This document shows positions 20,321 to 38,663 of a stretch of 64,000 nt of DNA, one piece after another. This stretch comes from Puniceicoccaceae bacterium (GTDB lineage: Bacteria; Verrucomicrobiota; Verrucomicrobiia; Opitutales; JAFGAQ01), in the NCBI GenBank assembly GCA_028285755.1, contig JANQOQ010000008.1, forward strand, positions 193,399 through 257,398. Direction: 5' to 3'. The notes beneath the pieces are model-generated. The model was given only the letters and a program-made list of their open reading frames with translations. It was not told the DNA's origin and did not search any database. The position numbers and the translations under genes were made by a program. The number at the start of each line of letters is the position of its first letter. The stretch's first letter is position 1.

Positions 20321-20439
<119 letters not shown>

Positions 20440-20523
20440 GTATTTACGGGATTTTCTTTGATTTCAGAATTTGCTCTTCAAAATGTTGAACATTCTCGAA
20501 CATTCCTGCATTTTCGTGAACTA

Positions 20524-20546
20524 AAACCAAACTTTTCACCAAACCT
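20524..20546 (+). repeat. 23-nt arm repeat AAACCAAACTTTTCACCAAACCT (left arm copy)
   Basis: Perfect direct copy of 38506-38528. It lies 85 bp inside attL, and the other copy lies 46 bp inside attR. It is a candidate arm-type integrase or Xis binding site. Confidence 0.6.
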
Positions 20547-20612
20547 TTTTAACTCAAAACACCCTCAAATCCCTTTAGGTATCAGCCTGAAGGCCATTTA
20601 AGGCAAAACCTT

Positions 20613-21320: not shown

Positions 21321-21383
21321 TCTATATAATTTTACTTGAAAGCTGTTGTATGATTTTTACCAAAAGACTACAACTTATATGAC

Positions 21384-21680
21384 TTAGAGATTTTTTTGAG
21401 CTAGAAATTCTATGTCTTCAAGCCTATAACGATAAGTATTGGGTAGTATCTCAACTGAACTAAGAATACCATCTTTTTTCATCTTCCAAAGCGTCCCGCG
21501 ACTTACGCCAAGCATCTTAGCAGCATCCTTTTGAGTCAGTAATAGCACTTCACGACCACCAGATGCCTTCATTGAAATCCTGCCGGCGATCAAATCTTCA
21601 AGCACCGCCTTATCAACAAAAGACAAGCTCTCATCCGTTTCACGGATTGTTCTTAGCAAGCTGATACTGGTCTTATTCAT
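21384..21680 (-). CDS. Excisionase/AlpA/MerR-type helix-turn-helix DNA-binding protein
   Basis: 98-aa ORF. LLTQKDAAKMLGVSRGTLWKMKKDGIL ... YRYRLEDIEFL is the HTH_17/excisionase-family pattern. Confidence 0.7.
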   Translation of the reverse strand: MNKTSISLLRTIRETDESLSFVDKAVLEDLIAGRISMKASGGREVLLLTQKDAAKMLGVSRGTLWKMKKDGILSSVEILPNTYRYRLEDIEFLAQKNL

Positions 21681-21901
21681 TGTTCCTCACACAGTATATG
21701 CGCGAGAAACCATCAAATATCCCAAGATTTTTTTGCAAAAAATCCATACAAGCTACCATGGCCATTAAGTATAGACTCTAATTTGTATCTTTGTTTTCTG
21801 GCGAGTGAGTCTTGTTAGAAACATTTCTTATCGATTGCGTCGATATAGCGTAATATTTCATGATATGTCTTAAAGATTTCAGTAAGTAATTAGAGTTTAC
21901 G

Positions 21902-24900
21902 ATGAAACGTCCTTTTTTTAATAAATCCATTACAGATCTGGAAGGTGCTTACAAAGACGGCTATAAAAATCCTGATCTTTTGAAGATACTTTTGGATGAG
22001 TTAAACCATCGTTCTACAAAACGATCTGACAAGCTCAAGCAGCAGATAAAAAATGCAATAAGCGAGAATAATCTACATAAGAGAGTAGACATAAAGGACG
22101 ATGTTACTTTAAAGCCCATACAAAAAGTAGAGCCAGCATCACCTGCTATACCAAGACAAGAAATCCCAAAAATTGAGAATAAGCCCGAAGATATTTTGTC
22201 GGCTTGGTCTGCTTTGGAGGTTTTGTCACCACCGACCTTTGATAAGCCAGAAAAACTGGCGGGTGGAGATAAGCTCGCTGTTGCTGATATACGCCATAAA
22301 GTCATGCCTTGGGAGAATGGAGTAGAGAGAGGCCGCAAAAATCAAAAACTCTACTATCATATTATCCTGGGCAGCATAAAAATGGATGAATCAGTTGCTG
22401 ATTTAATGAAAATCTATGCGGACAAGCGTGCTGAAAAGCCACTGGCTAAAGGTCGTGCTATTTTAGCCTCTGTCACTGTTAATAAAGAAGGCCAACCAGT
22501 TGGTGAATCTATGGTTACCATTGCTAGTTTCGGTTGGGGTGTTTCCAGGGCGTTAAAAGGTCACTTGAAGGATTTGGGAAACTGGTCTGCAACCGAGAAG
22601 GAACTCATCGAGGGTTTAGAGCCTATTCTGAACAAAACGGACGAAAATGGCGAAATAGCTCAGCTTAATTATGAAGTAATTCAAAATGCATATAATTGGC
22701 TTATCAAATCGCTTGAACTTCCTTCTCATTTAGTTTGCCCGCCCGAATTTGTACTCCGAACCTATCAGTATTATAAAAATGCTGAACCGCCAGAAGCATT
22801 GATATTGAACAGTTTTTTCCTTAATGATTTGGAAAAGGCAAAGCTTTCATTTCAAGGTAATAAGGCTACAGCGAACCTCAGGCGGTATCTAGGAGTTATT
22901 CAACCTCAATACCGACATAATTTATTGGTTGATAGTGAAGCTCTTGAGGAAACGATAGCACCCAGTTTGTTCCCAATTTCTTGTTGGTCAGGTCAAGGTC
23001 ATCATCCACTGGTTTTACTCCAGCAATCGGGTGTCAATTTAGCAGGGCAAGTCTTAGAGGATGAGGGTATCCTTGCGGTTAATGGGCCTCCTGGCACAGG
23101 CAAGACTACTTTATTACGGGATGTCGTTGCTGAGATTATAACTAAGCGCGCAAAGGCTATGAGTGCATTTGAAAACCCTTCTGAAGCATTCAAACATACA
23201 GGCAAAAAAATAAAGGCAGGAAATGGTTGGTTACATCTTTATGAGCTTCATCAATCTATACGTGGTCATGAAATACTAATTGCGTCTTCCAATAATAAAG
23301 CAGTGGAGAATGTAAGTGCTGAATTACCTGGCATTGATTCAATCGCTGATGATGTTGATTTGAGGTATTTCAAAACGATTTCCGACATACTTACGGGTAA
23401 GGATAGTTGGGGTCTCATTGCTGGAGTGCTTGGAAATTCACAGAACCGTTACGATTTTAAACAATCGTTTTGGTGGGATAAGGATTTCGGATTAGCAACC
23501 TATCTAGCGGAAGCATCAGGAACACCCCAATTTATTGAAGAGAAAGATAAAACAACACGTAAGCCTCATGTGATAAAAAATGAGAACCCACCAAAGAATG
23601 CAAATGACGCATTGCTCAGATGGAAAGCTGCCCAGCAAAAATTTAATAGCGCCTTAGATCAGGCCGAAGATGCCATCAATAAATTTGAGGTTATTAGGGT
23701 CAAAGTTAAGATCCTTTCCGCCCTAAAGGATCAAAAAAATGCAATTGCGGATTTACGATATTGGAAGTCTAAATGGCCAGGATTTTGGGCATGGCTATTT
23801 CAGCTATCACACTACCGCGAATGGAAGTCAGAATATACCAGCAGGCAAATCAAACTAAGAAAAATTGAACATCATCTTAGAAAACTTCAGAAAGATATAA
23901 ATCTTCCTACACTCAACATGGAAGCCATATCTGTTGAAATAGAACAATGCAAAAAGCGCCTTGGACTGACCATAGTTGATGAAGAATTTCATTCACTCGA
24001 CCATGATGTGAAACAAGGATTGTCGCCATGGCTTGATAATGAAACTCATAAGTTGCGTGAAAAAGTGTTTATTGAAGCAATGAAACTCCACAAGACGTTT
24101 ATTGATAGCGCAGCAAAGCCAATACGGCATAATTTGGGCGTGCTTATGAATGTTTGGGATGGAAAGTCATTACGAGAAAACAATGATCTTTTGCCGGATT
24201 TATGGGCATCCCTTTTTTTGATCGTTCCGGCTCTTTCAACAACGTTTGCTTCTGTAGATCGTATGATTGGCAAATTGCCAGCTGACTCTCTAGGGTGGCT
24301 TTTAATTGATGAAGCTGGACAGGCATTGCCTCAGGCTTCTGTGGGTGCGATAATGCGAACAAAACGCGCTTTCATCGTTGGTGATCCAATTCAAATTGAG
24401 CCTATAGTTGCATTGCCCGACACTCTTACAGAGTCAATTTGTCGTCAGTTTGGTATTGATTCAGATGATTATAATGCACCAACAGCCTCAACTCAAACAC
24501 TTGCCGATACTGCCACGCCCTACATGGCTGAATTTGCAAGCCAAGGTAGCAGCCGGACAGTGGGCATACCGCTTCTTGTCCATCGACGCTGTAGAGAGCC
24601 CATGTTTGGTATATCTAATTCGATTGCCTATGAAAATTTGATGATAAACAAAAAGGTCGCTAAGACATCTGATATTGAGAATTGTCTAGGACCTTCACAA
24701 TGGTTCCATATAGAGGGGGCTGCGAGGGATAAATGGAGCAAGGAAGAAGGACAAATGGTTTTGTCATTATTAAGCCAACTCAAAGATGCGGATGTTTATC
24801 CAGATCTTTACATTGTTACCCCATTTGTTGTTGTGCAAGATAACCTACGAAGAATTATCCGGGATAAAGGCATTCTTAAAGGCTGGGTAGATAATCCGAA

Positions 24901-25138
24901 ATGGGTTTATGAAAGAATTGGCACCGTTCATACTGTTCAAGGTCGTGAAGCTGAAGCTGTTATTTTCGTTTTAGGTGCTCCAGAATTAAAACAACAGGGT
25001 GCGCGAGGCTGGGCTGGAGGCAGGCCAAATTTACTTAATGTGGCGGTCACACGTGCTAAAGAGGTTTTATACGTAATCGGCAATAGAGAACTCTGGAAAA
25101 ACTCAGGAACTTTTAAGCAAGTCGATAGTCGCCTTTAG
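21902..25138 (+). CDS. Superfamily-1 helicase of the Upf1/DNA2-like (AAA_11/AAA_12) type with an unassigned N-terminal region
   Basis: 1078-aa ORF. Motifs seen: Walker A VNGPPGTGKTT (aa 393-403), Ia ILIASSNNKAVENV, II LLIDEAGQ (aa 800-807), III FIVGDPIQIEPI, V/VI GTVHTVQGREAEAVIFVLG and NVAVTRAKEVLYVIGN. There is an insertion of about 330 aa between Ia and II, and the first 380 aa or so have no motif I recognise. Confidence 0.9.
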   Translation: MKRPFFNKSITDLEGAYKDGYKNPDLLKILLDELNHRSTKRSDKLKQQIKNAISENNLHKRVDIKDDVTLKPIQKVEPASPAIPRQEIPKIENKPEDILSAWSALEVLSPPTFDKPEKLAGGDKLAVADIRHKVMPWENGVERGRKNQKLYYHIILGSIKMDESVADLMKIYADKRAEKPLAKGRAILASVTVNKEGQPVGESMVTIASFGWGVSRALKGHLKDLGNWSATEKELIEGLEPILNKTDENGEIAQLNYEVIQNAYNWLIKSLELPSHLVCPPEFVLRTYQYYKNAEPPEALILNSFFLNDLEKAKLSFQGNKATANLRRYLGVIQPQYRHNLLVDSEALEETIAPSLFPISCWSGQGHHPLVLLQQSGVNLAGQVLEDEGILAVNGPPGTGKTTLLRDVVAEIITKRAKAMSAFENPSEAFKHTGKKIKAGNGWLHLYELHQSIRGHEILIASSNNKAVENVSAELPGIDSIADDVDLRYFKTISDILTGKDSWGLIAGVLGNSQNRYDFKQSFWWDKDFGLATYLAEASGTPQFIEEKDKTTRKPHVIKNENPPKNANDALLRWKAAQQKFNSALDQAEDAINKFEVIRVKVKILSALKDQKNAIADLRYWKSKWPGFWAWLFQLSHYREWKSEYTSRQIKLRKIEHHLRKLQKDINLPTLNMEAISVEIEQCKKRLGLTIVDEEFHSLDHDVKQGLSPWLDNETHKLREKVFIEAMKLHKTFIDSAAKPIRHNLGVLMNVWDGKSLRENNDLLPDLWASLFLIVPALSTTFASVDRMIGKLPADSLGWLLIDEAGQALPQASVGAIMRTKRAFIVGDPIQIEPIVALPDTLTESICRQFGIDSDDYNAPTASTQTLADTATPYMAEFASQGSSRTVGIPLLVHRRCREPMFGISNSIAYENLMINKKVAKTSDIENCLGPSQWFHIEGAARDKWSKEEGQMVLSLLSQLKDADVYPDLYIVTPFVVVQDNLRRIIRDKGILKGWVDNPKWVYERIGTVHTVQGREAEAVIFVLGAPELKQQGARGWAGGRPNLLNVAVTRAKEVLYVIGNRELWKNSGTFKQVDSRL

Positions 25139-25148
25139 TAAGTATTGA

Positions 25149-25199
25149 CCACAAGTTCGTTCGGCTTGGCTGTTTGGGGGCCGCCAACCGAACTTGTGG
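25149..25199. other. Long imperfect GC-rich hairpin directly after the helicase stop
   Basis: CCACAAGTTCG ... CGAACTTGTGG forms an 11-bp outer stem, with an inner TTGGC/GCCAA helix. There is no T-run, so this is not a canonical intrinsic terminator. Confidence 0.45.
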
Positions 25200-25399
25200 A
25201 CAATACAAATAGGCATAATCTTATGGTAAAAGTGCGAGACACAATACCCTAAGGCCTCGCGGCCTTAGGAAAACAAGAAGTCTTCCAAGGGTGCTCCAAG
25301 CGCATGACAAGTAGCTGACAACCCCTTGGCAACGTCCTTCCAAGTTAAAAAACAAGGGGAAAACAAGGGGTTTTGTGCGAATGCTACGCATATACTTGT

Positions 25400-25759
25400 A
25401 TGGACACATTTTTTGAAAAGCACAAACGCCCTCACACGAGCATCCTTGAAGAGTGGTGGGACGAGATCGAAGCCATGCGCACCCAGGAGTGGCCTTATCG
25501 TAGGATTGCCGACTGGCTTAGGAACAATAAGGAAATTACAATCAGTGCCGAGGCCGTCCGGCAATTTTGCAAGGTTCGTGACATTTCCAAAGGCAATTCT
25601 GAAAGACAACCTAAAGCAAGACCTTCAAGAACACCGACTAAGCCGCTGAAACAAAACCGTTATCCTAAACCCAAAACTCCCGTTAAACGAATTTTTGAAT
25701 ACGATGATACCGAGCCCATCGATATTCATAATAAGAAATCTGCGAAATCAGGCTTTTAA
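25400..25759 (+). CDS. Small HTH-like protein with a basic low-complexity tail (transposase-N-terminal/regulator-like)
   Basis: Read from Met10 of the ORF: MDTFFEKHKRPHTSILEEWWDEIEAMRTQEWPYRRIADWLRNNKEITISAEAVRQFCKVR. YRRIADWL..N..ITIS..AV..F resembles a helix-turn-helix. The assignment is weak. Confidence 0.4.
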   Translation: MDTFFEKHKRPHTSILEEWWDEIEAMRTQEWPYRRIADWLRNNKEITISAEAVRQFCKVRDISKGNSERQPKARPSRTPTKPLKQNRYPKPKTPVKRIFEYDDTEPIDIHNKKSAKSGF

Positions 25760-25791
25760 ACCGTTTCGCAAGAGATGTAGACGATCTATAA

Positions 25792-26190
25792 CTATTTTGT
25801 GATGAGTATTTCGGCCAGCTGGGTAAGGCTTACAATTGTAACGCCCTGGACAGTTCTTCGATACAAATGACCAAAATCGCGCTTGTCTCCGGTAACCAGG
25901 TAATCGCATTTTCCGGCAATTGCTGAACATAGGATTGGAGCATCTTTTTCAACCAATTCTACCTTTAGCTCAAAACTGCTGGTTCCTACCCATTCTACGT
26001 TTTCACAGAGTTTATCAAACCCTTTTTGCCATTGAGGACGTTTAGCAACAATATTGCGGCTCGCTTCTTCCCGTGCGTAATCGCTGGAAACGGCGGTAGC
26101 TTTCTCCAATATCAGTGCAACAAGCCTTTCAACCTGGCTGTTGGAATTTGCACCCGCAAACAGGACATTGGCATCAAGAAAAATCCTCAT
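25792..26190 (-). CDS. PIN-domain toxin (VapC-like)
   Basis: 132-aa ORF with MRIFLDANVLFAG (N-terminal acidic D), ..VTGDKRDF (C-terminal acidic motif) and PIN-size length. The start overlaps the antitoxin stop (ATGA). Confidence 0.85.
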   Translation of the reverse strand: MRIFLDANVLFAGANSNSQVERLVALILEKATAVSSDYAREEASRNIVAKRPQWQKGFDKLCENVEWVGTSSFELKVELVEKDAPILCSAIAGKCDYLVTGDKRDFGHLYRRTVQGVTIVSLTQLAEILITK

Positions 26191-26423
26191 CAGGGATTCT
26201 TCTGATTCAGGATTGCCTCAAGAGATTCTTCTTCACTTAAGAATTCCGCAATTCTCTCTTCTGAGTAGGTCTCAACCGGCAAGCTTATAGAGGGGCGTAA
26301 TAATATCCCCTCATCCGTGGTCTCCATGATGAGCTGGTCATTTTGCTTCATACCAAAGCTTTTTCTGACCTTTGAAGGGATCGTAATAGCGCCCCGGCGG
26401 CCTATGGTGATTTTTTCAAACAT
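26190..26423 (-). CDS. AbrB/MazE/SpoVT-type antitoxin
   Basis: 77-aa ORF. ITIGRRGAITIPSKVRKSFGMKQNDQLIMETTDEGILLRP is the swapped-hairpin AbrB-like motif. It is translationally coupled to the PIN gene. Confidence 0.85.
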   Translation of the reverse strand: MFEKITIGRRGAITIPSKVRKSFGMKQNDQLIMETTDEGILLRPSISLPVETYSEERIAEFLSEEESLEAILNQKNP

Positions 26424-26442
26424 AATTACAGTATAGCCGAAT

Positions 26443-26458
26443 TTCCGTCATTCCGTCA
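26443..26458. promoter_or_regulatory. Tandem TTCCGTCA x2 just upstream of the antitoxin start (candidate operator)
   Basis: TTCCGTCATTCCGTCA lies 20-35 nt upstream of the antitoxin ATG (26423, minus strand). It is flanked by GCCGAA / TTCGGC inverted half-sites. Confidence 0.35.
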
Positions 26459-26736
26459 ACATTTTCGGCAATTTTAAAAAACAAGCCAAAGATATGACGC
26501 TTTCCCTAAGCTTGAGCTGACTCAATACAAATAAAATTTCCCTTTTCATATCAGGTTGGGCTATACTCGCTCTTGCCAGGTGCAAATTCACCTGGACGGG
26601 CTTAACAACTCAAGCACACATTCGGTCTTATGGGCCGGATGGCGAAGAAATAAGGCCAATCCGGCTGAATACTTCGCGCAGTGCGTGTGCGCTGTTGTTA
26701 ACGTCCGGTCTACCAATCGACCAAGGAGTAAGACCG

Positions 26737-26877
26737 ATGCAAAATACCGTATTCAAAAGTGACATTTTAAAAGACCTGGCCTTTTACAAAGCCATAAAAT
26801 TCTTTGCCGTTTCTAACGACAATTTCAGTGAATCAGTATCCCCCGCAGAGATCGAAAGCGATAACAAACAAGTTTGA
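26737..26877 (+). CDS. Small ORF (46 aa) with a strong Shine-Dalgarno, unknown function
   Basis: AAGGAG lies 8 nt upstream of the ATG at 26737. The product is MQNTVFKSDILKDLAFYKAIKFFAVSNDNFSESVSPAEIESDNKQV. It is preceded by a GC-richer hairpin-rich leader of about 180 nt. Confidence 0.35.
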   Translation: MQNTVFKSDILKDLAFYKAIKFFAVSNDNFSESVSPAEIESDNKQV

Positions 26878-27174
26878 TTATCCCCTTCGATACTCGACCT
26901 ATAAACTCTGGCAGACCTTGAGCAATCAAGGACTGCCTTCTTTTTAGGAGCTGCGCCCCTCGCCCAGTAAAGCCGTGTCCCCAATCTTCATTCGTGCCTC
27001 ATTGTAGATTGGGTGATCCCCCTCGGCGTTGACTGCGCACACCCGCTGTATGGGTCGGCTGGTCATGGGTTGCTTGAGCAACCCTTTTTCCATGAAAGCA
27101 TAAAGGAAGCGGCAGGGCATTTTGCGATTAACGCGCTTAAGAAAAGCAGGGAATACGCCGATTATTGATAGCGA

Positions 27175-27201
27175 TGAAACAGATTCGGGGATTCTGTTTC
27201 A
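27175..27201. repeat. Lox-like recombination-site candidate A (TGAAACAGATTCGGGGATTCTGTTTCA)
   Basis: 10-nt inverted arms TGAAACAGA(T)/(A)TCTGTTTCA flank an asymmetric G-rich centre. It is 26/27 identical to the reverse complement of 30939-30965 and lies 8 nt beyond the SIR2 stop codon. Confidence 0.6.
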
Positions 27202-27209
27202 TGTCAACT

Positions 27210-30200
27210 TTATTGAGACATAACCTTTGGATTCACTGCAAGAGCACCTTCCGAATTAAACTGAAGCTCACATTTCACATCCGATTGCTCCTTCAAGATA
27301 GTGTCACCCCATTTAGAGCCTGGGCATATAACATTCATTGGTATACCATCAGTTTGTATCCAAGCTGCTCCTCGTGCGAGATGAACAATCTTTCCTCGCA
27401 CATAAAGAGGTTTGGATGGATCTGTTTTATCTGCTGGAACAAAATGCACTTCTCTTCTTTCACCAATTGAAAAACTTTGTTTTTTACTTTCTCCAACTGT
27501 ATCACGATATTTTGAGAAGTTTTTCTCAATAAAATACAAGCCAGCGAGTATCGAAATAAATCGTGGATCCTTTGTCCCTTGGTATGCGGCAAGATTCAAC
27601 ACTGCAATTGCCTCCGAATTGGTAAGATTTAACCCCAAAATTGATTTTGCATACTCCAGCGCTAGTCGAAAATCATCAGGTGTATCTGTAATAGCTGGCT
27701 CAACTACCTTCTTTGCCTGAGCGTATTCACCATTCTTATTGTAAACTCTCGCAAGAAGATACCTAGACAGATGTGTACTATGCGAAGATTCAACGGCCCT
27801 AAGTAGAGAATCAATCTGCTTTGGGTTGTCCCCAATGTAGTGAGAAATGTCAGAAGAAAGAATCCAAAGCGCTTCTTTGTTCCTTGCAGAATTTATACCT
27901 TCTGTGATTTCTCTTTCAGCCTTAGCAAGATACTCTGCTGACTCAGATACATCGTGGTCCTCTATGAATTTCGCCCACCTGAAAAAGATGTTTGCAAGTC
28001 CATGTATACAATACTCGTCATTGGCTTTTATTTTCAATCCATTCCTAAAAGAAACCTCACTTTGTATTAAGTGTTTTCTTGCGATATCTATACTTTCACT
28101 ATTAAAAGCAAGATCAGATAGAATTTCACCTTTTGTATGGTGAAGTATCCTTTTCGGATTTATTTCGAGCGCCTTATCAATCTGTCCTAATGCAAGCGAA
28201 AACCTTTTCTCCCGAGAGAACATTCGAGCATAATGCTGGAACACATACATATTTTTAGGATCTTTTCTGCATGCTGTTTCAAAAAACTTAGTTTTCCCCT
28301 CCAAACTACTTATACTATCTACGAGAGAGTCTGTGCGAATGAAGCTCTCAAAAGCATCCCTATCAGATTTGTGAGTCAAATTTAGAAAACCTAGAGCTTT
28401 TTGTAATATACTTTCTTGTAATAAAGACTCTCCACAACGTTCCCATACGATCTGAGCAATCTTTTTGTGCCTAGGCCTAACACCATAGATTCCACGACTT
28501 ACATTGATATCTTCGTCTACGATAACTCCATCCAAATACTGATTCAAGATTGGATGCAGCTCAGTCTCCTTGAGATTTAACAGTTGAGCCAATAAACTAG
28601 TTCTGAGAATATTCCCATTTTGATAGAAGCAACACACAGACAGGTAAATCTCTTGAGCACAGGCATCGCTTATTCCACGATACTCATCTTCTAAAATAGC
28701 ATCAAAAGATCTGCCTTCAGTCGTTTCTCGCATTGTTACCAGAAGTTCTTGCCCTAAATTATTTTTAACCGCAGCACGTTGCAATTCAGGAGAAAGATCA
28801 TTTAACACACCTAAGCTAGAGTGTTTTTTCAAAAAACCTAGCAGCAACCCGATCTCTCGATCAGAAAGAATCTCAATTTCAAATTCCTTGCCACCGGGAC
28901 TTGTAGCAAGAAATTGATTCCATTCATTTTTTCTGCTGCCAAGAACAAAAAGAACCTGTCTTTTGTTCTCTCTAAATTTATGGAGTATATTCGCAATTCG
29001 AGTTTTAAATCTCGCAGCATTGTCTACAATAAATACAGCAGTTCCGTTGGTAGCGCTAAGAGCAAACTCAATATCCCCATCCAAGAAGTTTCCCACTTCT
29101 TTCAGATAGAAAATGGGGGCGGCATTTTCTTTTATTAGACGAACAGATAAAGCCATCAATAATGACGTCATGCCATACCCAGCAGGTGCTAGAACTGTTA
29201 GCACACTCGGACGACCCATTGGTGAGGTAATATAATCCAAGCATTCATTATACAAATCTTCCTCTAAATCACGTTCAAAATAGTCGCCTGTTCCTATCAA
29301 TGACCAACTGGGCTTATCTCCCTTTAAAAAGTTATCCAAGTTTCTTTTTTCTTCAAAAGGGGCCTGATTTACATAAACCCAAGAGGTGAAAAGTCTTAAA
29401 AATGGAGCAATGTTTTCATTTGCTAATGAGTGAAAATCTGGTGGAATTTCGGCTTTAAGTTTTTCCAGGTCAAAATCACTGATAGAATCTGAGAGTTGGC
29501 TTTTAAGTGATGAAACAAAATCAGTCAGGTTTTGAGGAATAGTTTCAATTCCATCAGACTTTAGAAGCATTTCTTCCAAGGTGTTTGTTGATGGAGAAAC
29601 CCTGAATGCACGTGGAAGTTCGGCGGGGTGATACTGATCTTTCAGATCTCTCAAAAGTGTTTCCCAGTTAGGATCACTGTTGGAATACCCAACATACAAG
29701 ACAGTGGAAACGGTAGAATCCATTTTCAACAAATCGAAGAGCATTTCTCTTTGTGATTTGAAGAGGTGGTAATCGTTTTTTGTGATGACAATGTTTGTTA
29801 GCCTCTCTCCATAGAGAATACCATGAAGATAAATTACTGGCATCTCCACATTACGATGGTAGTCTTTTACTTCTCTTGATAGCGTAAAAAAAACTGGCTT
29901 CTTTTTGATATCACGAATCTGCTCATAAGCGCGTTTGATAGATTCATCGTAATTGGTTGTGTATACAGATCTCCACTGTAACGACAACAACCATTTCAAA
30001 TCATCATCGGGCTCTGCATCACGAAATCTAGTTGCTAAATAACTCTCTAAAGAATCTCGATCTGTTTGCATTTCAACAACACTCGAAACGAGAATAAGAT
30101 CATCATTTCGTTCTATTGAAAATCTATCACAAAGCTCGTGCGCCAACTCTTTTCCAGTCGGGAGTCTTTTTCCGCCAGAAGTTACATTAAATCCAATTCC

Positions 30201-30269
30201 GGCTCCTAAAAATAAAACACATTTTCCGCTTTCAATTGAGCTTACTAGGCTAAGAGGTATTTCTGGCAT
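27210..30269 (-). CDS. SIR2-domain (SIR2_2-type, predicted NADase) protein fused to a degenerate P-loop NTPase-like module, TPR-like repeats and a C-terminal cold-shock-like beta-barrel
   Basis: 1019-aa ORF. SIR2_2 motifs: KCVLFLGAGIG (aa 16-25), VYTTNYD (N106), VIYLHG (H149), LYVGYSNSDPNW. A Walker-A-like LAPAGYGMTS (aa 360-369) has Met367 where Lys is expected, and a Walker-B-like AVFIVDNA follows. Helical repeats cover aa 655-925 (e.g. LALGQIDKALEINPKR, YLLARVYNKNGEYAQAKKVVEPAI). The tail GKIVHLARGAAWIQTDGIPMNVICPGSKWGDTILKEQSDVKCELQFNSEGALAVN resembles a CSD/OB fold. Confidence 0.85.
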   Translation of the reverse strand: MPEIPLSLVSSIESGKCVLFLGAGIGFNVTSGGKRLPTGKELAHELCDRFSIERNDDLILVSSVVEMQTDRDSLESYLATRFRDAEPDDDLKWLLSLQWRSVYTTNYDESIKRAYEQIRDIKKKPVFFTLSREVKDYHRNVEMPVIYLHGILYGERLTNIVITKNDYHLFKSQREMLFDLLKMDSTVSTVLYVGYSNSDPNWETLLRDLKDQYHPAELPRAFRVSPSTNTLEEMLLKSDGIETIPQNLTDFVSSLKSQLSDSISDFDLEKLKAEIPPDFHSLANENIAPFLRLFTSWVYVNQAPFEEKRNLDNFLKGDKPSWSLIGTGDYFERDLEEDLYNECLDYITSPMGRPSVLTVLAPAGYGMTSLLMALSVRLIKENAAPIFYLKEVGNFLDGDIEFALSATNGTAVFIVDNAARFKTRIANILHKFRENKRQVLFVLGSRKNEWNQFLATSPGGKEFEIEILSDREIGLLLGFLKKHSSLGVLNDLSPELQRAAVKNNLGQELLVTMRETTEGRSFDAILEDEYRGISDACAQEIYLSVCCFYQNGNILRTSLLAQLLNLKETELHPILNQYLDGVIVDEDINVSRGIYGVRPRHKKIAQIVWERCGESLLQESILQKALGFLNLTHKSDRDAFESFIRTDSLVDSISSLEGKTKFFETACRKDPKNMYVFQHYARMFSREKRFSLALGQIDKALEINPKRILHHTKGEILSDLAFNSESIDIARKHLIQSEVSFRNGLKIKANDEYCIHGLANIFFRWAKFIEDHDVSESAEYLAKAEREITEGINSARNKEALWILSSDISHYIGDNPKQIDSLLRAVESSHSTHLSRYLLARVYNKNGEYAQAKKVVEPAITDTPDDFRLALEYAKSILGLNLTNSEAIAVLNLAAYQGTKDPRFISILAGLYFIEKNFSKYRDTVGESKKQSFSIGERREVHFVPADKTDPSKPLYVRGKIVHLARGAAWIQTDGIPMNVICPGSKWGDTILKEQSDVKCELQFNSEGALAVNPKVMSQ

Positions 30270-30364
30270 AATTGCTACAAGAGCAATCTATTCCCTTTAA
30301 CCAGATTTAATCAAGAACACATTAGCTATAAGTTCCCAAGGATTATTCCCGGTCAGAAGGTGTT

Positions 30365-30913
30365 TTAATTGGAAAGCCAGCTTCTCTTTGCGAGTTCTTT
30401 TTCTTCAGGGCCAACAACATCCAAATATAACGATGTGGTTTCCAGTCTTTTATGACCCAACCACCTTTGCACCGTTGTAATTGGAACCTCATTCTTGATA
30501 TATGAAACTGCGTATGAGTGTCGTAGACCTTTAGGGCATGCTTTTATACCCGTAAGCTTCTCAGATACCATTATTCTTTTTATTGTCCTCCATCCCGTAG
30601 TCCTTGAGAAGCTCCACAAATATTGAGCATTGCGATTTAATTTAGCGTAAGCCCCCAATAATTTACTTGGCACGGGAATAGGACGAAAAATACCTTTTTC
30701 TCGTTGTTTGAGTGTCTCAAAAACAATCAATTTTTCAGAGAAATCGACTCTATCCCAGGTCAGGTTTAAAGCTTCGGAGATGCGACACCCTGTGTAAAAC
30801 AGTGTCAGGCAAAAGGCTCTTTTCGATAGGTCAGGCTCTTGCATGACGGCTTTGTAGAAGGCCTGTCTTTCGGCTTCGTTTAGGTATTTTCGCTGACCGT
30901 TTCTATCATACAT
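30365..30913 (-). CDS. Small catalytic-domain-only tyrosine recombinase (FimB/FimE-like size and layout)
   Basis: Catalytic residues are readable: YTGCRISEAL (R), GLRHSYAV (H-x-x-R), WLGHKRLETT (H) and SLYLD (Y). Starting at Met32 (MYDRNGQRKYLNEAERQAFY) gives 182 aa, collinear with 200-aa invertases. The ORF-track start at 31006 would read through the palindromic site B. Confidence 0.85.
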   Translation of the reverse strand: MYDRNGQRKYLNEAERQAFYKAVMQEPDLSKRAFCLTLFYTGCRISEALNLTWDRVDFSEKLIVFETLKQREKGIFRPIPVPSKLLGAYAKLNRNAQYLWSFSRTTGWRTIKRIMVSEKLTGIKACPKGLRHSYAVSYIKNEVPITTVQRWLGHKRLETTSLYLDVVGPEEKELAKRSWLSN

Positions 30914-30938
30914 TTGATTATTTTCATTTCGATAATAC

Positions 30939-30965
30939 TGAAACAGAATCCCCGATTCTGTTTCA
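30939..30965. repeat. Lox-like recombination-site candidate B (TGAAACAGAATCCCCGATTCTGTTTCA)
   Basis: Perfect 11-nt inverted arms TGAAACAGAAT/ATTCTGTTTCA flank a CCCCG centre. It is an inverted copy of site A and lies 25 nt upstream of the Met32 start of the small recombinase. Confidence 0.6.
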
Positions 30966-30968
30966 GCT

Positions 30969-30997
30969 ATGATAACATCCATAATTGGAGCAGTAAA
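30969..30997 (-). promoter_or_regulatory. Sigma70-like promoter candidate firing into site B and the recombinase-SIR2 unit
   Basis: The minus strand reads TTTACT (30997-30992), a 17-nt spacer, then TATCAT (30974-30969), ending 2 nt before site B. This is pattern match only, and the host promoter consensus is unknown. Confidence 0.25.
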
Positions 30998-31409
30998 TCG
31001 GGTCACTTGTGTATGCCTTGTTGCAGTTCTAAGCGTGGATGGCCTGGCGAAAAATTCGCATAAGAGCGCTTATGAGCTTGCCAATGAATATTCAAAGACG
31101 GGCGAAGGTGTAGGCATCATAATTCGTATTGGTAAAGTTGATATGGCACTTTTCAAGGAGCGCGGAATTTTGCCAGATTTAGTAGGTCAAAAACTTGAGG
31201 AGGTTTTAACCGAGTATAGTGTTATCAGTAAATCTTTCTGGGAGCTTGGAAACGGAGACTATACAGGAGTTGCTTTTGATCTAGGCCCGTTAACCTATAA
31301 AGATGATATTTCGGGAAAGTCCGTGTTTTCTATTAGTGGAGCAATTGCAGCTTCACCAAGGGTCGCTCAAAAGTTCAAGAACTTGCAGAAGTTCAATAAC
31401 AAATACTAG
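30969..31409 (+). CDS. Hypothetical protein (true start uncertain, probably internal)
   Basis: 146-aa ORF. The C-terminal 110 aa or so have ordinary globular composition (..SAYELANEYSKTGEGVGIIIRIGKVDMALFKERGILPDLVGQKLEEVL..). The first 40 aa or so overlap the recombinase upstream region and look non-native. Confidence 0.35.
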   Translation: MITSIIGAVNRVTCVCLVAVLSVDGLAKNSHKSAYELANEYSKTGEGVGIIIRIGKVDMALFKERGILPDLVGQKLEEVLTEYSVISKSFWELGNGDYTGVAFDLGPLTYKDDISGKSVFSISGAIAASPRVAQKFKNLQKFNNKY

Positions 31410-31422
31410 CGATACGCTACGC

Positions 31423-32190
31423 CTAGAAATTCATTCCTAATGCATCCAAAGCATTTTTTGTAGATACTGTGTCTAGCTGATTGTTTTTTTGATCCTTGCT
31501 GACTTCTTCGGTAATGCCAGATTCATTAAGTAAAGCAAAGTCAAATACCTCCAATTCTTGTTTGGCTTCTGCCAGGTCTATTACACCTTTTTGGTATCTT
31601 GCCTCAATGTCCTTTATTCTGTTTCGCTGATCTTGGGTGTCCTCGAGTTCTTTTTGAAGGATTTCATAGCGATCAGACTTATCTATAACGTTTTCCTTGG
31701 CTGCAATTATTTCTTCGCCCAGCAGCTTAGATAAGGCCACATCTGTCAAATTTTCATCAATTTGCATACCTTGCTTTTCGAGTAATGTGATAGCAGCTTC
31801 ACGATCTAATGTCCCATTGCCATCGTCATAGGATTTCAGAAGTTTTTCTGCATCGTCCACAAATTCATTTAGCTGGTTTAGCTCGGTTTCGACTGCTTCC
31901 ATTTGCGTTAATAAATTACTGATGCGATCATCAAGAACTGCTAGTTGGTCTTCAATTTGGCTTAATAGGTGATCGAGCAGTGAGCTTTTTTTGTTCTTAC
32001 CGTCCTTTTTATCATCTAGGTCTGGATTTCTTATGGTGGCACTAATAGTGCTTGAAAAGATGCTTTGGTCGGGATCAATCGCGCCACTCAAAACCTTAAC
32101 ATAGTCCTGCTTTTCCTCTTTATCGGAAATGCCTAAATAGTCTGTCGGTTTTGACTCTTTCATGTTTAATCCCTGTCTTGGTTTTCCCAT
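31423..32190 (-). CDS. Acidic coiled-coil protein, unknown function
   Basis: 255-aa ORF with long heptad-like stretches (LLDHLLSQIEDQLAVLDDRISNLLTQMEAVETELNQLNEFVDDAEKLL; EILQKELEDTQDQRNRIKDIEARYQKG). An alternative start is Met10 at 32163. Confidence 0.55.
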   Translation of the reverse strand: MGKPRQGLNMKESKPTDYLGISDKEEKQDYVKVLSGAIDPDQSIFSSTISATIRNPDLDDKKDGKNKKSSLLDHLLSQIEDQLAVLDDRISNLLTQMEAVETELNQLNEFVDDAEKLLKSYDDGNGTLDREAAITLLEKQGMQIDENLTDVALSKLLGEEIIAAKENVIDKSDRYEILQKELEDTQDQRNRIKDIEARYQKGVIDLAEAKQELEVFDFALLNESGITEEVSKDQKNNQLDTVSTKNALDALGMNF

Positions 32191-32313
32191 TATATTTCCA
32201 TATCATTAAAATGACGTTAATGCCTTTAGCATATTGGGGTATGCAGTTTAAGCTTTCGTTAAGGCTGTTCGTGTTGAACTAGCAGGAGATAAGAAACTAT
32301 TGGGGACGTAGCT

Positions 32314-32628
32314 ATGACTACAGAGAAACATTTTACAATCAAGAGCTTGGCTGAATATTGGGACTGTTCAGAGGGCTTTATTCGTGCGCGGATTGCGGAC
32401 GGGAGTTTACAGCATTTGAAAATGGGTGGTATGTATCGTATAAAGAAGGAATCCGTCCAAAGATATGAGGAGCACTGTTCATGCCGAGAGCAACCCGATG
32501 CGTTCCAGAATTCCGAATTCGCAATCTCCCAGGTAAGCCCAATCTTTACCTTTGCTGGTCAGAGAACCGCCGTTCAAAACGGATTTCAACGGGCACAGAT
32601 GATCCAGTCGCAGCGCAGCAATTCCTAG
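32314..32628 (+). CDS. Excisionase-type HTH protein (Xis-like)
   Basis: FTIKSLAEYWDCSEGFIRARIADGSLQHLKMGGMYRIKKESVQRYEE follows the HTH_17/excisionase pattern in the first 55 aa or so. The 3' 148 nt overlap the integrase gene in another frame. Confidence 0.7.
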   Translation: MTTEKHFTIKSLAEYWDCSEGFIRARIADGSLQHLKMGGMYRIKKESVQRYEEHCSCREQPDAFQNSEFAISQVSPIFTFAGQRTAVQNGFQRAQMIQSQRSNS

Positions 32629-33527
32629 CTGACTTTATCAATGGTTGGAATGCTCCACCTCCCAAAGATGTTATTACCTGTAATGAAATTATAGATCGGT
32701 ATCTTGAGCACAAGAGAAGTCACTATGAGAAAGACATTCGGTCTCAGCAAACATACGCGGGTTTGGTTTTTTGCCTAAAACCGATTAGAGAGTATTTTGG
32801 TAATCTTACAGCTAGTAGTCTAAACCGACAGCACTCCCGAAACTTCATTGAGCTTCAACGAAACAAAAATCTATCAGACGCGAGCATTCGCAAACAGCTA
32901 TCGATTTTTACGGCAGCACTTAATTTTGCAAAAGTGGAGCTTTGGATTGACGATTTTGCACCTCTCGAAAAGCCCAAGCCCCCCAGACCAAGGGATAAAT
33001 GGCTAAAACCTGATGAAGTAAAGCGATTCCTAGATGAATGTCATACATACCATATAAAGCTATTTACCCTATTGGCTTTGCATACGCTATCGAGGAAAGC
33101 TGCGATTCTCGACTTAAAATGGGAGCAGGTAGATTTTGAAAGTCGACTCATTGATTTTAACCCACCTGAAAGGGTAGATACAATCAAAAGGCGGGTGCCT
33201 GTAAGGATGAATGATACACTTTGTGGTGCATTGCTAGAGGCCAAAGATTTTTCTCAAACCGAATACGTTATCGAGTATAACGCTAAGCCTGTTTTGGATA
33301 ATAAGAAGGCTTTTGCTCGTGTGGGGGTAAGGGCTAAACTTAAATGGGTCACCCCTCACGTTTTAAGGCATACTGGAGCGACTTTACTTGCTAAGCAAGG
33401 GGTGCCTATGTGGGAAATTGCAGGCATCATGGGTGACCGTCTGGCGACTGTAGAGAAGCATTATGCGAAGCACCATCCCGACTATCTGAAAAACGCAGTC
33501 AATGCGTTGGATAATCTCTATGGATAA
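32481..33527 (+). CDS. Tyrosine-type integrase (second integration module)
   Basis: 348-aa ORF. It has an N-terminal arm-binding-like LYLCWSENRRSKRISTGTDD and a SAM-like core-binding region. Catalytic residues: TLSRKAAILDL (R), HVLRHTGATLL (H-x-x-R), GDRLATVEKHYAK (Y). Confidence 0.9.
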   Translation: MPRATRCVPEFRIRNLPGKPNLYLCWSENRRSKRISTGTDDPVAAQQFLADFINGWNAPPPKDVITCNEIIDRYLEHKRSHYEKDIRSQQTYAGLVFCLKPIREYFGNLTASSLNRQHSRNFIELQRNKNLSDASIRKQLSIFTAALNFAKVELWIDDFAPLEKPKPPRPRDKWLKPDEVKRFLDECHTYHIKLFTLLALHTLSRKAAILDLKWEQVDFESRLIDFNPPERVDTIKRRVPVRMNDTLCGALLEAKDFSQTEYVIEYNAKPVLDNKKAFARVGVRAKLKWVTPHVLRHTGATLLAKQGVPMWEIAGIMGDRLATVEKHYAKHHPDYLKNAVNALDNLYG

Positions 33528-33584
33528 GTGCGCACCAGTGAGCACATATATAATTTGGTTAAACTTCTAAGTATTTGAAAAGAT

Positions 33585-33629
33585 TGGTGGACCCTAGCGG
33601 GATCGAACCGCTGACCTCTTCGCTGCCAG
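33585..33629 (-). other. Orphan tRNA-Ala(GGC)-like 3' fragment (anticodon loop to CCA), an att-type sequence next to the second integrase
   Basis: The minus strand reads CTGGCAG CGAAG AGGTC AGCGG TTCGATC CCGCT AGGGTCC A CCA. It is near-identical in the variable and T arms to E. coli tRNA-Ala(GGC) as I remember it (GAGGTCAGCGGTTCGATCCCGCT). No complementary 5' half lies upstream, so it is not a functional tRNA. Confidence 0.8.
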
Positions 33630-33720
33630 TTTTCAGGTTAGTAGCGCACGCATTGGATTTCTGCGATTCAAAGTATTTGTGACAGTCAAGAATTAGCACC
33701 CATTCATACGTCTTTCAGTG

Positions 33721-33749
33721 ATAAGTGCGCACGTGTGCGCACATCTTAT
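33721..33749. promoter_or_regulatory. Imperfect palindrome ATAAGTGCGCAC-GT-GTGCGCACATCTTAT (operator or oriT/nic-region candidate)
   Basis: It contains two copies of the self-complementary GTGCGCAC. The 13-mer GATAAGTGCGCAC (33720-33732) also occurs at 33523-33535, overlapping the integrase stop codon, so the two copies flank the tRNA-Ala fragment. Confidence 0.4.
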
Positions 33750-33880
33750 GGAATATCCAAGTCTGTTATTTTATATTCATTTCAATAACTTATATGAATA
33801 CATGCGCAACCATTGGTCATAATTTGTTAAGAATATAGCCTTATGGTTGTAATCGTAAGTGTGTAGCATTTGCGGGGTAG

Positions 33881-33913
33881 CAAGATGTGTTTTTGTAAAC
33901 AAAAACCATCTTG
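33881..33913. promoter_or_regulatory. Inverted repeat about 105 nt upstream of mobC (oriT candidate)
   Basis: CAAGATG(T)GTTTTTG-TAAA-CAAAAACCATCTTG has 14 paired positions with a 1-nt bulge. It is followed by further short hairpins (GGGG-TGAGTAT-CCCC, GGTGC-TTT-GCACC). Confidence 0.4.
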
Positions 33914-34018
33914 GCAAGGGGTGAGTATCCCCCCGTTGCATCCCCTTTGGGCGGTGCTTTGCACCTTTTAATCACGCCGCCGGACAAAATCCCAGTGGCA
34001 AACGTAAAGGAATCTGCC

Positions 34019-34366
34019 ATGGCAAGACCCCGTTTACCGGAGAATAGCCAAAAAAGGACAAAGCAGGTGATATTCCGTTTAACAGAGGCTGAATATCACC
34101 AGTTGTCCGTTATGGCGGCGCGTGCTGGCTTTAGTGTAAACACTTTCGCCAGGTATGTAGCGTTGGCGCGAGCCAAGCGCATTATTGTGAAGACCCATGC
34201 CCGGAGCGATCCAGCCCTTATCAAGAGACTGGAACGCATCGGGCATAATTTGAATCAGCTAACGCGCTACTCGCATTGTTCGGGGCAAGTCCCTTCACAA
34301 ATCCATGAACTGTGCGCACACATTCATGACATTGTTCATCGTGACATTGAGGAGATAAACCTATAA
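34019..34366 (+). CDS. mobC: MobC-family relaxosome accessory protein (ribbon-helix-helix)
   Basis: KQVIFRLTEAEYHQLSVMAARAGFSVNTFARYVAL ... RIGHNLNQLTR matches the MobC pattern. The start is set at the internal ATG with AAGGA upstream (34019); the ORF-track start at 33911 is a TTG with non-native-looking sequence. Confidence 0.8.
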   Translation: MARPRLPENSQKRTKQVIFRLTEAEYHQLSVMAARAGFSVNTFARYVALARAKRIIVKTHARSDPALIKRLERIGHNLNQLTRYSHCSGQVPSQIHELCAHIHDIVHRDIEEINL

Positions 34367-35529
34367 TGAATCCGCATATCACCAGTGGAGGCAGTAGCTT
34401 TAGGGGTGCCTATCTTTACTATATGCACGACAAGGGAGCAAATACGCGAAATCGCATTGCCTGGACGCATACCGAGAATATGATGACGAATGACCCTGAT
34501 CTTGCTTGGAAAGTGATGAGCTATACGGCTATGGGTCAGGATCGTTTGAAGGAAGCGTCCGGCCAGAAACGAACAGGCCGCAAAACGGAAAAGCCAGTTT
34601 TGGCATATTCGCTTTCATGGCACCCTGAACAAAATCCCAATAAAGACCACATGCTTGAAGTCGCGCAGAGGTCTATCAAGATGCTTGGGTTGTCAGACCA
34701 TGAGGCGATTATTATCGCTCATCAGGACACCCCACACAAACACGTGCATGTGATTGTTAATCGGGTGCATCCGATAACGGGTTTGGTCGCAAACGGCTCA
34801 AATTCCAAACGCAAGCTTTCAGGGTTCGCTTTGGAATATGCACACGAGCATGGGTTGAACTATGCGCCGCAGCGTCAGCAGAACGCGCGTGAAAGAGAAA
34901 ACTCTTCGCACAATCGTAAAATCCAAGATGAATGGGATTCATCGCATGACGGTGAAAGCCTGATTTTCGCTTTAGAGCAAAACGGCTTTCGTTTAGCCCA
35001 TGGTAACAAGCGTCTGGTTGTGGTTGATGCATCGGGTAAAGTTCATAATCCCGTTCGCCACATCAGAGGGATTAATGCGAAAGACTTTCGTGAACGCTTA
35101 GGGTCAGAGATTTACAATGCCTTGCCTCAAATTGATGAGGTCGTTGCTGAAATTAAAGAAAAGCCGTCCAATTCTCACGAGCAATTGGAAGCCAGTTATC
35201 GTAAATACATTGAGGAGCTTAAACGCTTACATCAGATCAAAGAACGCCAGGCTGAAATCAAAGAGCTACAGAAAAAAATAAAAAATGCCCGCTGGTGGCA
35301 TAAGCTTCTGGGGATCACCCGCCGACACACGAATGATTTAAACAAAGCAAGACAGGATTACTGCAACGTCAATGAGCGTATCAAAACCCAAGTGCGTATC
35401 TGGAAAAAGGCTAAGCTTGATGCCCTTGGCAAATCAAATAACCCAACCAAGAGACCAGCAAAGCGACATATCACCAATCAAGGCAAAAGCATTGGCATGG
35501 ATACGAGTAATTCGGGTCTTAGCCTGTGA
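34366..35529 (+). CDS. Relaxase / mobilization nuclease (MobA/VirD2 family)
   Basis: 387-aa ORF. It has N-terminal SFRGAYLYYMHDKG (candidate catalytic Tyr) and the histidine triad IIIAHQDTPHKHVHVIVNRVHP. The start overlaps the mobC stop (ATAATG). Confidence 0.9.
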   Translation: MNPHITSGGSSFRGAYLYYMHDKGANTRNRIAWTHTENMMTNDPDLAWKVMSYTAMGQDRLKEASGQKRTGRKTEKPVLAYSLSWHPEQNPNKDHMLEVAQRSIKMLGLSDHEAIIIAHQDTPHKHVHVIVNRVHPITGLVANGSNSKRKLSGFALEYAHEHGLNYAPQRQQNARERENSSHNRKIQDEWDSSHDGESLIFALEQNGFRLAHGNKRLVVVDASGKVHNPVRHIRGINAKDFRERLGSEIYNALPQIDEVVAEIKEKPSNSHEQLEASYRKYIEELKRLHQIKERQAEIKELQKKIKNARWWHKLLGITRRHTNDLNKARQDYCNVNERIKTQVRIWKKAKLDALGKSNNPTKRPAKRHITNQGKSIGMDTSNSGLSL

Positions 35530-35658
35530 TTTTTATGCTAAACCATAAAGCATAAAGTGACACTTAACGGTTTATGGTTTTACACAAAAAGTATGTAATA
35601 TCAAACTTTGACTTTCAAACAACATACTTTTTGCGCAATTTTCTTGTAATTTGAAAGT

Positions 35659-36867: not shown

Positions 36868-36935
36868 TTCCATCCAGCATTAATTCGCTAAATACCTTGT
36901 TTAACGGTAAATATTCTCAACAAAGTTTACAGTTG

Positions 36936-38574: not shown

Positions 38575-38663
38575 GGCTCATAACCTGAAGGTCCTCGGTT
38601 CAAATCCGAGCCCTGCACCCAATTTCCCAAGGCCTTAGCACCCGCTAAGGCCTTTTTTATTAA
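38575..38663 (+). repeat. attR-type direct repeat containing a displaced tRNA-Met 3' fragment (38575-38621)
   Basis: GGCTCATAACCTGAAGGTCCTCGGTTCAAATCCGAGCCCTGCACCCA plus a terminator copy. There is no 5' half of the tRNA upstream of it. Confidence 0.95.

Follow-up and report, generated by a model that had tools for sequence, protein, structure and literature searches.

A candidate SIR2-STAND defense protein from a Puniceicoccaceae mobile island and its bacterial clade without the Walker A lysine

A 64,000-nucleotide stretch of the genome of a Puniceicoccaceae bacterium (contig JANQOQ010000008.1; hereafter the window) carries a minus-strand gene for a 1019-residue protein in which a SIR2 domain, a STAND nucleotide-binding oligomerization domain (NOD), tetratricopeptide repeat (TPR)-like helices, and a cold-shock domain (CSD) of the oligonucleotide/oligosaccharide-binding (OB) fold follow one another. 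We consider it likely that the gene product is a stand-alone antiviral protein resembling nucleotide-binding leucine-rich repeat receptors (NLR-like), that it belongs to the SIR2-STAND (Avs5) kind with the core layout of SAMD9, and that it travels as the cargo of a mobile island. This kind of system and its architecture, including the OB/CSD tail, are already known, and the architecture is not categorically new. What we have not found described is a large bacterial clade of SIR2-NOD-TPR-CSD proteins, to which the window protein belongs, that has lost the Walker A lysine and conserves the rest of the nucleotide pocket.

Domain architecture and kinship with Avs5 and SAMD9

The reading frame at 27210-30269 is uninterrupted, as a preliminary description of the window had reported, and the motifs quoted there, together with Asn106, His149, and Met367 (codon ATG, 29169-29171), all sit where they had been placed. 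About 87 full-length-type homologs, retrieved by a word-index search, share 36-56% identity with the protein and have an identical set of Pfam domains. The AlphaFold2 (AF2) model of the full-length chain, computed with an input of 65 homologs, has a predicted local distance difference test score (pLDDT) of 88.3 and a predicted template-modeling score (pTM) of 0.80. The parts of the gene are as follows, with the evidence for each in parentheses (NBD, nucleotide-binding domain; WHD, winged-helix domain).

27210..30269, minus strand: complete gene, 1019 aa plus stop, SIR2-STAND NOD-TPR-CSD (open reading frame, translation, AF2 model)
29490..30269, minus strand: predicted SIR2 NADase effector domain, aa 1-260 (Pfam SIR2_2, PADLOC ThsA, PDB matches)
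29952-29954, minus strand: predicted catalytic Asn106 (SIR2 motif)
29823-29825, minus strand: predicted catalytic His149 (SIR2 motif)
29235..29489, minus strand: linker and pre-NBD helical element, aa 261-345 (conservation, DSSP of the model)
28890..29234, minus strand: NBD of the STAND NOD, aa 346-460 (Pfam nSTAND_NTPase5, column statistics)
29157-29192, minus strand: lysine-less Walker A LAPAGYGMTSLL, AGYG-M367-TS, aa 360-371 (motif position)
29016-29039, minus strand: Walker B AVFIVDNA (VDNA), aa 411-418 (motif position)
28932-28934, minus strand: sensor-1 Arg446 (column statistics)
28320..28889, minus strand: helical and winged-helix part of the NOD, aa 461-650 (secondary structure of the model, conservation)
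28467-28472, minus strand: Arg600-His601, presumed WHD histidine (invariant in both clades)
27465..28319, minus strand: TPR-like helical repeats, aa 651-935, presumed sensor arm (Pfam, model)
27222..27407, minus strand: C-terminal five-strand CSD-like OB barrel, aa 955-1016 (profile, AF2, Foldseek)

The SIR2 domain is of the defense type, as had been proposed, and its predicted catalytic residues are intact. It contains the motifs LFLGAG (aa 19-24), TTNYD (aa 104-108), YLHG (aa 147-150), and GYSNSDP (aa 194-200), matches SIR2_2 in Pfam (E = 1.2e-17) and the ThsA model of PADLOC (E = 1.1e-21, aa 8-214), and matches the NADases ThsA, KomC, and DSR2 among PDB sequences. A joint alignment of 152 full-length relatives shows Asn106 and His149 without exception. 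In the linker that follows (aa 261-345), W297, N310, G317, W322, and R333 are invariant in the clade, and R333 is kept in 151 of 152 relatives spanning both the lysine-less clade and its lysine-containing sister clade. The NOD is recognized by nSTAND_NTPase5 (PF25199) over aa 313-452 (E = 8.1e-27; 94.3 bits against a cut-off of 34).

The remaining two domains are also those that had been suggested. TPR-like repeats are matched by Pfam TPR_14, TPR_17, and TPR_19 over aa 660-920 and by TPR proteins in the PDB, and the region is all-helical in the model. The tail of the window protein has no Pfam match of its own; a profile of 65 homologous tails retrieves cold-shock proteins only, in 37 of 37 PDB matches (best, CspB, E = 8.8e-8), and 13 of these 65 tails match Pfam CSD individually. 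Modeled in isolation, the tail forms a five-stranded barrel with a pLDDT of 92.4, for which the best PDB matches in Foldseek are CspB and CspA, with template-modeling (TM) scores of 0.77-0.81 and root-mean-square deviations of 2.0-2.4 Å. The tail sequence quoted in the preliminary description is found at aa 959-1013, which corresponds to 27231-27395; only the upper bound given for it, 27407, is displaced, by a trivial offset.

With the full-length model as query, Foldseek places human SAMD9 at the top (9ZJV and 9ZJR; E = 1.9e-21, about 1150 aligned columns), followed by EfAvs5 (9JAP; 3.6e-21), the filaments of PaAvs5 (9NC9; about 1e-16), DSR2 (about 1e-10), and ThsA (about 1e-8). At the sequence level, an NTPase profile built from both clades retrieves the NOD of EfAvs5 (9jap_A, residues 368-541) at E = 1e-11, with the next match at 2.7e-5; a profile built from the lysine-less clade alone retrieves nothing significant among PDB sequences. 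No SAMD9 chain is among the matches listed for three profile searches of PDB sequences, and SAMD9 is present in the PDB library of Foldseek. By sequence, the protein is a relative of Avs5; in structure and architecture, it is analogous to the SAMD9 core. It is classed here as Avs5-like, within the nSTAND5 branch, rather than as an ordinary member of Avs5. The kinship with Avs5 and other SIR2-STAND proteins that had been suspected is borne out by both EfAvs5 matches.

The supposed novelty of the architecture, on the other hand, has to be given up. The preliminary description held that a lysine-less P-loop and a CSD tail were unknown in the related types, but the matches to SAMD9 and EfAvs5 run end to end with the same domain order, and the core of the SAMD9 family has been described as a SIR2-like domain, a STAND P-loop with a replaced lysine, TPR, and a cold-shock-like OB fold, with bacterial members (PMC5445408; Mekhedov, Makarova, Koonin 2017). 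Avs5, Avs6, and Avs9 have been presented as bacterial structural analogues of SAMD9/9L (PMC12680541; Legrand et al. 2025), and in a census of STAND proteins the Avs5 sensor clusters with SAMD9, and KpAvs5 is compared to human SAMD9 (PMC13581612; Lee et al. 2026).

The window protein resembles EfAvs5 and PaAvs5: all are products of a single gene and combine an N-terminal SIR2 domain, a central STAND NOD, and a C-terminal helical-repeat sensor. EfAvs5 and PaAvs5 deplete NAD+ after filamentation (PMC11897194, PMC12931631), and NAD+ depletion after oligomerization would, by analogy, be the expected output of the window protein too. There are also differences. EfAvs5, at 869 aa, is the shorter protein, with a C-terminal sensor that is called unusually short in its paper; PaAvs5 is nSTAND3 in Pfam, whereas the window protein is nSTAND5; and both keep a canonical GK[ST], whereas the window protein has Met367 and its clade a residue other than lysine.

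With SAMD9, the protein has in common the core order of SIR2, STAND NOD, TPR, and cold-shock-like OB fold, and the replacement of the Walker A lysine. However, SAMD9 carries SAM and AlbA_2 tRNase effector domains, and the window protein has neither; the SIR2 of SAMD9 is without the NAD lid and is regarded as non-catalytic, whereas the catalytic residues are intact here; and the SAMD9 signature of a GG[TS] P-loop with an upstream histidine is missing. Avs9 and Avs6 are likewise SAMD9-like bacterial STAND proteins of SIR2-P-loop-TPR-OB organization. They were set apart from their descriptions, in which Avs9 has an N-terminal AlbA_2 nuclease as its toxic effector and Avs6 has a PNP domain; Pfam gives no AlbA_2 match in the window protein, which opens with SIR2 at residue 1. 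The absence of AlbA_2, of the GGT/His signature, and of significant sequence similarity, together with a SIR2 domain that looks catalytic, sets the protein outside SAMD9/Avs9. The core layout is common to them, and so, probably, is the logic of a lysine-less NOD that holds a nucleotide.

Two other SIR2 systems were considered and rejected. DSR2 is similar in length, starts with a SIR2 NADase, and ends in a long helical sensor, and yet the window protein reaches only 25.7 bits with the NCBIfam Dsr2 model, the cut-off of which is 1400, the PADLOC Dsr2 model covers aa 20-201 only, and a STAND NOD is present; DSR2 is not known to have an NTPase module or a CSD. In Thoeris, ThsA is a SIR2 domain fused to a SLOG/STALD domain, and a partner gene encodes ThsB, a protein with a TIR domain. 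The ThsA models match the SIR2 part alone (profile positions 13-213 of 478), and no TIR gene was found among the island open reading frames scanned. A multi-gene system of any kind was rejected as well: in 45 loci with full-length homologs, where a conserved partner was sought, each neighboring gene family within 4 kb is found in three loci at most. Because no neighbor is conserved across these loci, the gene appears to act alone, in agreement with the single-gene SIR2 NADase immunity candidate proposed earlier.

A non-immune function, that of a regulatory sirtuin working as a protein deacylase or ADP-ribosyltransferase on host targets, for example in stress or RNA metabolism, seems very improbable. 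It would account for the annotation of some relatives as 'SIR2 family NAD-dependent protein deacylase', for the many homologs that lie among housekeeping genes, and for a CSD, which hints at RNA biology. However, the database names are automatic, the SIR2 domain is of the SIR2_2/ThsA/DSR2 defense type, NOD homology links the protein to EfAvs5, the family is distributed patchily over at least 10 phyla, and the gene is carried by mobile islands, beside genes for toxin-antitoxin, restriction-modification, TIR, and Mrr proteins. Neighbors of homologs include HepT/MNT arrays, AbiE, MazE-PIN, a TIR protein, Mrr, recombinases, and coupling proteins of type IV secretion systems; among 150 random neighbors, integrases, type I methylases, and resolvases are the commonest, and components of DRT, Lamassu, and Dpd occur too. 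In the phage collection, no relative of the gene product was found.

Several observations nevertheless weigh against an antiviral protein of the Avs5 kind that works as its relatives do. Many homologs have housekeeping neighborhoods, and the association with mobile and defense DNA, although recurrent, is qualitative only. The full-length Foldseek matches have low TM-scores (0.29-0.38), an effect of differing domain orientations. Variability in the TPR region does not exceed that of the remaining protein, whereas rapidly evolving sensors are usually more variable than the rest of the chain. PADLOC 2.0.0 returns only SIR2-domain matches, and none to an Avs model, for the window protein and the sister clades, the Avs5 models of this library being unverified. 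No equivalent of the compensating upstream histidine of SAMD9 is present, position 361 being Ala or Gly in the clade. Finally, the substitutions K379A in EfAvs5 and K363A in PaAvs5 abolish defense (PMC11897194, PMC12931631); the lysine is essential in these Avs5 proteins, and its loss could therefore mean a different activation logic.

The lysine-less clade and its nucleotide pocket

An exhaustive HMMER search with the NTPase profile collected 1914 cluster representatives at E<=1e-3, 426 of them at E<=1e-30, and the lysine counts given here cover the sequences with an identifiable P-loop. In the close tier, the Walker A lysine is replaced by T, V, I, M, L, or A in every case (112/112), whereas the next tier, with the same architecture of about 1030 aa, has it as GK[ST] in 81 of 83. 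One of the two exceptions is a fragment from the lysine-less clade. The other, P0146, has GSGIST in place of GSGKST at aa 380-390; here the lysine appears to have been lost a second time, independently, within the same architecture. In the joint alignment of 152 proteins, the 89 lysine-less proteins form a single cluster by NTPase identity, apart from the lysine-containing ones. The STAND-type NTPase without a Walker A lysine that had been read from the window protein is real, and the missing lysine is clade-wide and not a private mutation.

Several other changes go with the loss of the lysine. Position 365 has become a near-invariant Tyr (85/89), two basic residues of the P-loop helix (372 and 373), both kept in the sister clade, are gone, and the second residue of Walker B has shifted toward Asn. 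In the CSD, the RNP2-like motif [VI][FY]x[HR] of the sister clade is replaced by C-P-G-S-K-[FY]. The changes in the NOD and in the CSD co-occur across the clade, and the CSD motif lies at aa 977-990 (window 27300-27341).

The sister clade is otherwise like the window clade in its four-domain order, its length of about 1030 aa, and its invariant SIR2 Asn and His, sensor-1 Arg, and WHD Arg-His, and the CSD tail is found there as well; in the P-loop, G-Y-G-[TVIM]-T of the window clade stands against GK[ST] of the sister clade. One lysine-containing member is UNC84816.1, a protein of 1044 aa annotated as 'SIR2 family protein' on the Klebsiella pneumoniae plasmid pKPC2_090249, which aligns with the window protein over 926 aa at 24% identity (BLASTP, 6e-55) and has nSTAND5, SIR2, and TPR matches, a GSGKS P-loop, and a CSD-like tail. 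It is possibly of the published KpAvs5 or 'Desulfobacula Avs5' type that has been likened to SAMD9. Because the lysine loss is nested beside a lysine-containing bacterial sister clade, it appears from the alignments to be independent of the SAMD9 case, and this would indicate at least two evolutionary losses of the lysine in this architecture. A literature search for nSTAND5 gave unrelated papers only, and nSTAND5 is not described in the available portions of Kaur et al. 2020, 2021.

The pocket itself is strongly constrained. The P-loop of the lysine-less clade, with the motif [AG]-P-A-G-Y-G-[TVIM]-[TS]-T, is its top conserved stretch (mean top-residue frequency 0.774, against 0.565 overall), and the profile of this clade, which has no significant PDB match, aligns it to the ABC-transporter sequence GPSGTGKTTLL with K opposite position 367. 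Nearly invariant are A363, G364, G366, T/S368, T369, D416, R446, an N-E-W motif, and R600-H601. A search for a substitute of the lysine yielded candidate basic residues gained specifically in the clade, namely R223, R292, R/K377, and R/H602, among others.

With the lysine replaced and Walker B reading D-N, the NOD of the clade is probably unable to hydrolyze ATP in the normal way. By analogy, the pocket most likely still holds a nucleotide as a structural cofactor, and nucleotide binding without hydrolysis is favored because the clade keeps the glycines that bind phosphate, the Thr that binds Mg, the Asp of Walker B, the sensor-1 Arg, and the WHD His. The pocket is highly conserved and would therefore be a remodeled, probably non-hydrolyzing nucleotide site and not a decayed one. 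There are precedents for such a state. In cryo-EM structures of SAMD9 and SAMD9L, ATP and Mg are bound in a NOD that is closed and auto-inhibited, and hydrolysis is not detected (PMC13600222; bioRxiv SAMD9L); in the same body of cryo-EM work the upstream His737 of SAMD9 takes the place of the Walker A lysine at a P-loop of 742-GGT-744. KpAvs8 is reported to have degenerate Walker A and B motifs, which suggests that it has no ATPase activity; this is a separate Avs family, likened here by its description, and a precedent for a hydrolysis-independent Avs.

The same features might suggest that the NOD of the clade is a nucleotide-free pseudo-NTPase that serves only as a scaffold for oligomerization, activation following from ligand binding alone. 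The replacement of the lysine by a hydrophobic residue or Thr, the mostly D-N Walker B, the loss of basic residues 372 and 373 along with the lysine, the missing SAMD9-like histidine, and the KpAvs8 example would all fit. However, the glycine-rich loop, T/S368-T369, Asp416, Arg446, and Arg600-His601 are almost invariant, it is difficult to see why the P-loop should be conserved above every other segment if no ligand is bound, and the lysine-less P-loop of SAMD9/9L holds ATP tightly. We regard a nucleotide-free scaffold as unlikely, if still a serious alternative to a nucleotide-holding pocket.

That the protein is a decaying, non-functional Avs5 relic, its ATPase killed by mutation, is next to inconceivable. 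Two catalytic NTPase residues are gone and an integrase fragment lies immediately upstream, but the open reading frame of 1019 aa is intact, the lysine-less state is common to 112 of 112 relatives from many phyla, conserved over their full length at 36-56% identity, and strong constraint acts on the pocket and on the catalytic residues of SIR2. Decay or pseudogene status is effectively ruled out by this family-wide conservation.

All Avs5 proteins tested so far need the Walker A lysine, and here a large, widespread clade dispenses with it. The lysine-less clade and its lysine-containing sister thus offer a natural paired comparison for whether NLR-like receptors use the nucleotide in a hydrolysis cycle or as a structural cofactor, and disease mutations of SAMD9/9L pose the same question on the role of the nucleotide. 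There is also a modest practical gain, as PADLOC 2.0.0 does not recognize the family as a system, and the family is a candidate addition to defense catalogues.

The C-terminal barrel and a proposed mechanism

By analogy with characterized relatives, we infer a phage trigger, oligomerization, NAD+ depletion, nucleotide binding, and a role for the CSD. At rest, the protein would have its TPR arm and CSD folded back on the NOD and its SIR2 domain kept inactive. The C-terminal TPR/CSD module would then recognize a phage-derived cue, most likely a protein if the analogy with other Avs proteins holds, and recognition would free the latch, so that an oligomer or filament could form through SIR2 and NOD contacts. 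Paired SIR2 domains might then hydrolyze NAD+, leading to abortive infection.

In SAMD9, cryo-EM work shows the OB barrel anchored on TPR2 and touching the NBD and SIR2; nucleic acid is not observed at the barrel, and partially open dimers of SAMD9/9L form OB/SIR2 and SIR2/SIR2 contacts (PMC13600222; bioRxiv SAMD9L). The OB fold of SAMD9 is required for oligomerization, and the full-length protein binds double-stranded nucleic acid (PMC12015307). By analogy, the CSD of the window protein may be a latch or oligomerization element, as in SAMD9, or a reader of nucleic acid, in line with the nucleic-acid-binding barrel of the preliminary description; the latter is less likely because RNP2 is remodeled in the clade and because the known Avs5 triggers are proteins.

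A stronger form of the second role, in which the C-terminal barrel binds phage RNA or single-stranded DNA directly and is the primary sensor of a nucleic-acid-triggered NLR-like protein, appears to us improbable. It does find points in its favor: the tail is a genuine CSD in sequence and fold, the RNP1-equivalent aromatics [YF]-x-[FWL]-I are retained in both clades, the sister clade has a canonical RNP2-like motif and a member, P0156, with Pfam CSD above threshold, and SAMD9 combines binding of double-stranded nucleic acid with an OB fold needed for oligomerization. However, RNP2 has become C-P-G-S-K-[FY] in the window clade, RNP1 of the window protein itself reads G-A-A-W-I and is one aromatic short, the SAMD9 barrel is anchored on TPR2 and touches NBD and SIR2, no nucleic acid being seen at it, and all characterized Avs5 triggers are proteins (T7 gp1.7, JADA).

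For the nucleotide-holding, latch-controlled protein that we prefer, a more specific version can be put forward, although tentatively and as rather unlikely in its details. Here, the NOD of the clade would be a hydrolysis-independent switch that holds ATP permanently, or another ligand, through the invariant Gly-Tyr-Gly-x-Thr, a change separate in origin from the one in animal SAMD9/9L, and the CSD with its C-P-G-S-K motif would either read phage nucleic acid or be a releasable latch. If this version is true, the clade would be a bacterial system well suited to studying how receptors of the SAMD9 type are auto-inhibited and fired, with NADase activity as an easy read-out.

The mobile island and its other genes

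The gene sits on an 18.2-kb island of low GC content at window positions 20351-38626, bounded by exact 52-bp direct repeats. The GC fraction is 0.415 in the island, 0.49 and 0.475 in the two flanks, and 0.386 in the gene. The other features of the island are the following.

20351..20402, plus strand: left bound, 52-bp repeat over the 3' part of tRNA-Met (tRNA 20321-20397; ARAGORN, Rfam, exact repeat)
21384-21680, minus strand: HTH_17 excisionase-like gene
21902-25138, plus strand: Upf1-like superfamily 1 (SF1) helicase, 1078 aa (AAA_11/AAA_12; PDB matches SMUBP-2, NAM7)
25792-26423, minus strand: PIN (PIN_3) toxin and MazE/AbrB-type antitoxin
30365-31006, minus strand: integrase-family open reading frame, 213 aa, GTG start, looks truncated
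32314-32628, plus strand: HTH_17 excisionase-like gene
32481-33527, plus strand: second integrase
33911-35529, plus strand: NikA-like protein and MobA/VirD2 relaxase
35659-36867, plus strand: AAA_14/DUF4143 ATPase, between the relaxase and the terminal integrase
37138-38445, minus strand: integrase at the right repeat (Pfam)
38575..38626, plus strand: right bound, second 52-bp repeat, adjoining the integrase (exact repeat)

The island is an integrative mobilizable element with defense-type cargo, inserted at tRNA-Met, and it is probably composite or tandem. Directly upstream of the SIR2-STAND gene, the truncated integrase at 30365-31006 may be the trace of an older insertion junction within the island.

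The Upf1-like helicase is possibly a second defense gene of the island. It matches MkoC of the Mokosh system in PADLOC at 2.4e-62 over aa 553-1068; its N-terminal 380 aa or so received no assignment, and a phospholipase D (PLD) nuclease domain was not detected in it. Two further open reading frames on the minus strand, at 20613-21320 (235 aa) and 31423-32190 (255 aa), are matched by neither Pfam nor PADLOC.

The PIN_3/MazE pair lies about 800 bp downstream of the SIR2-STAND gene. A MazE and PIN_3 pair is also found near the homolog in a metagenome-assembled genome of Chloroflexia (L004, 5829-6549), in another arrangement. This proximity is probably a matter of co-occurrence on islands and not of functional linkage.

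The insertion site is flanked on its chromosomal side by a hybrid histidine kinase that has a receiver domain (18157-20172, minus strand) and stands directly before tRNA-Met. In addition, the chromosomal flank contains a bacterial small signal recognition particle (SRP) RNA at 62276-62374 on the minus strand (Rfam RF00169, 68 bits).

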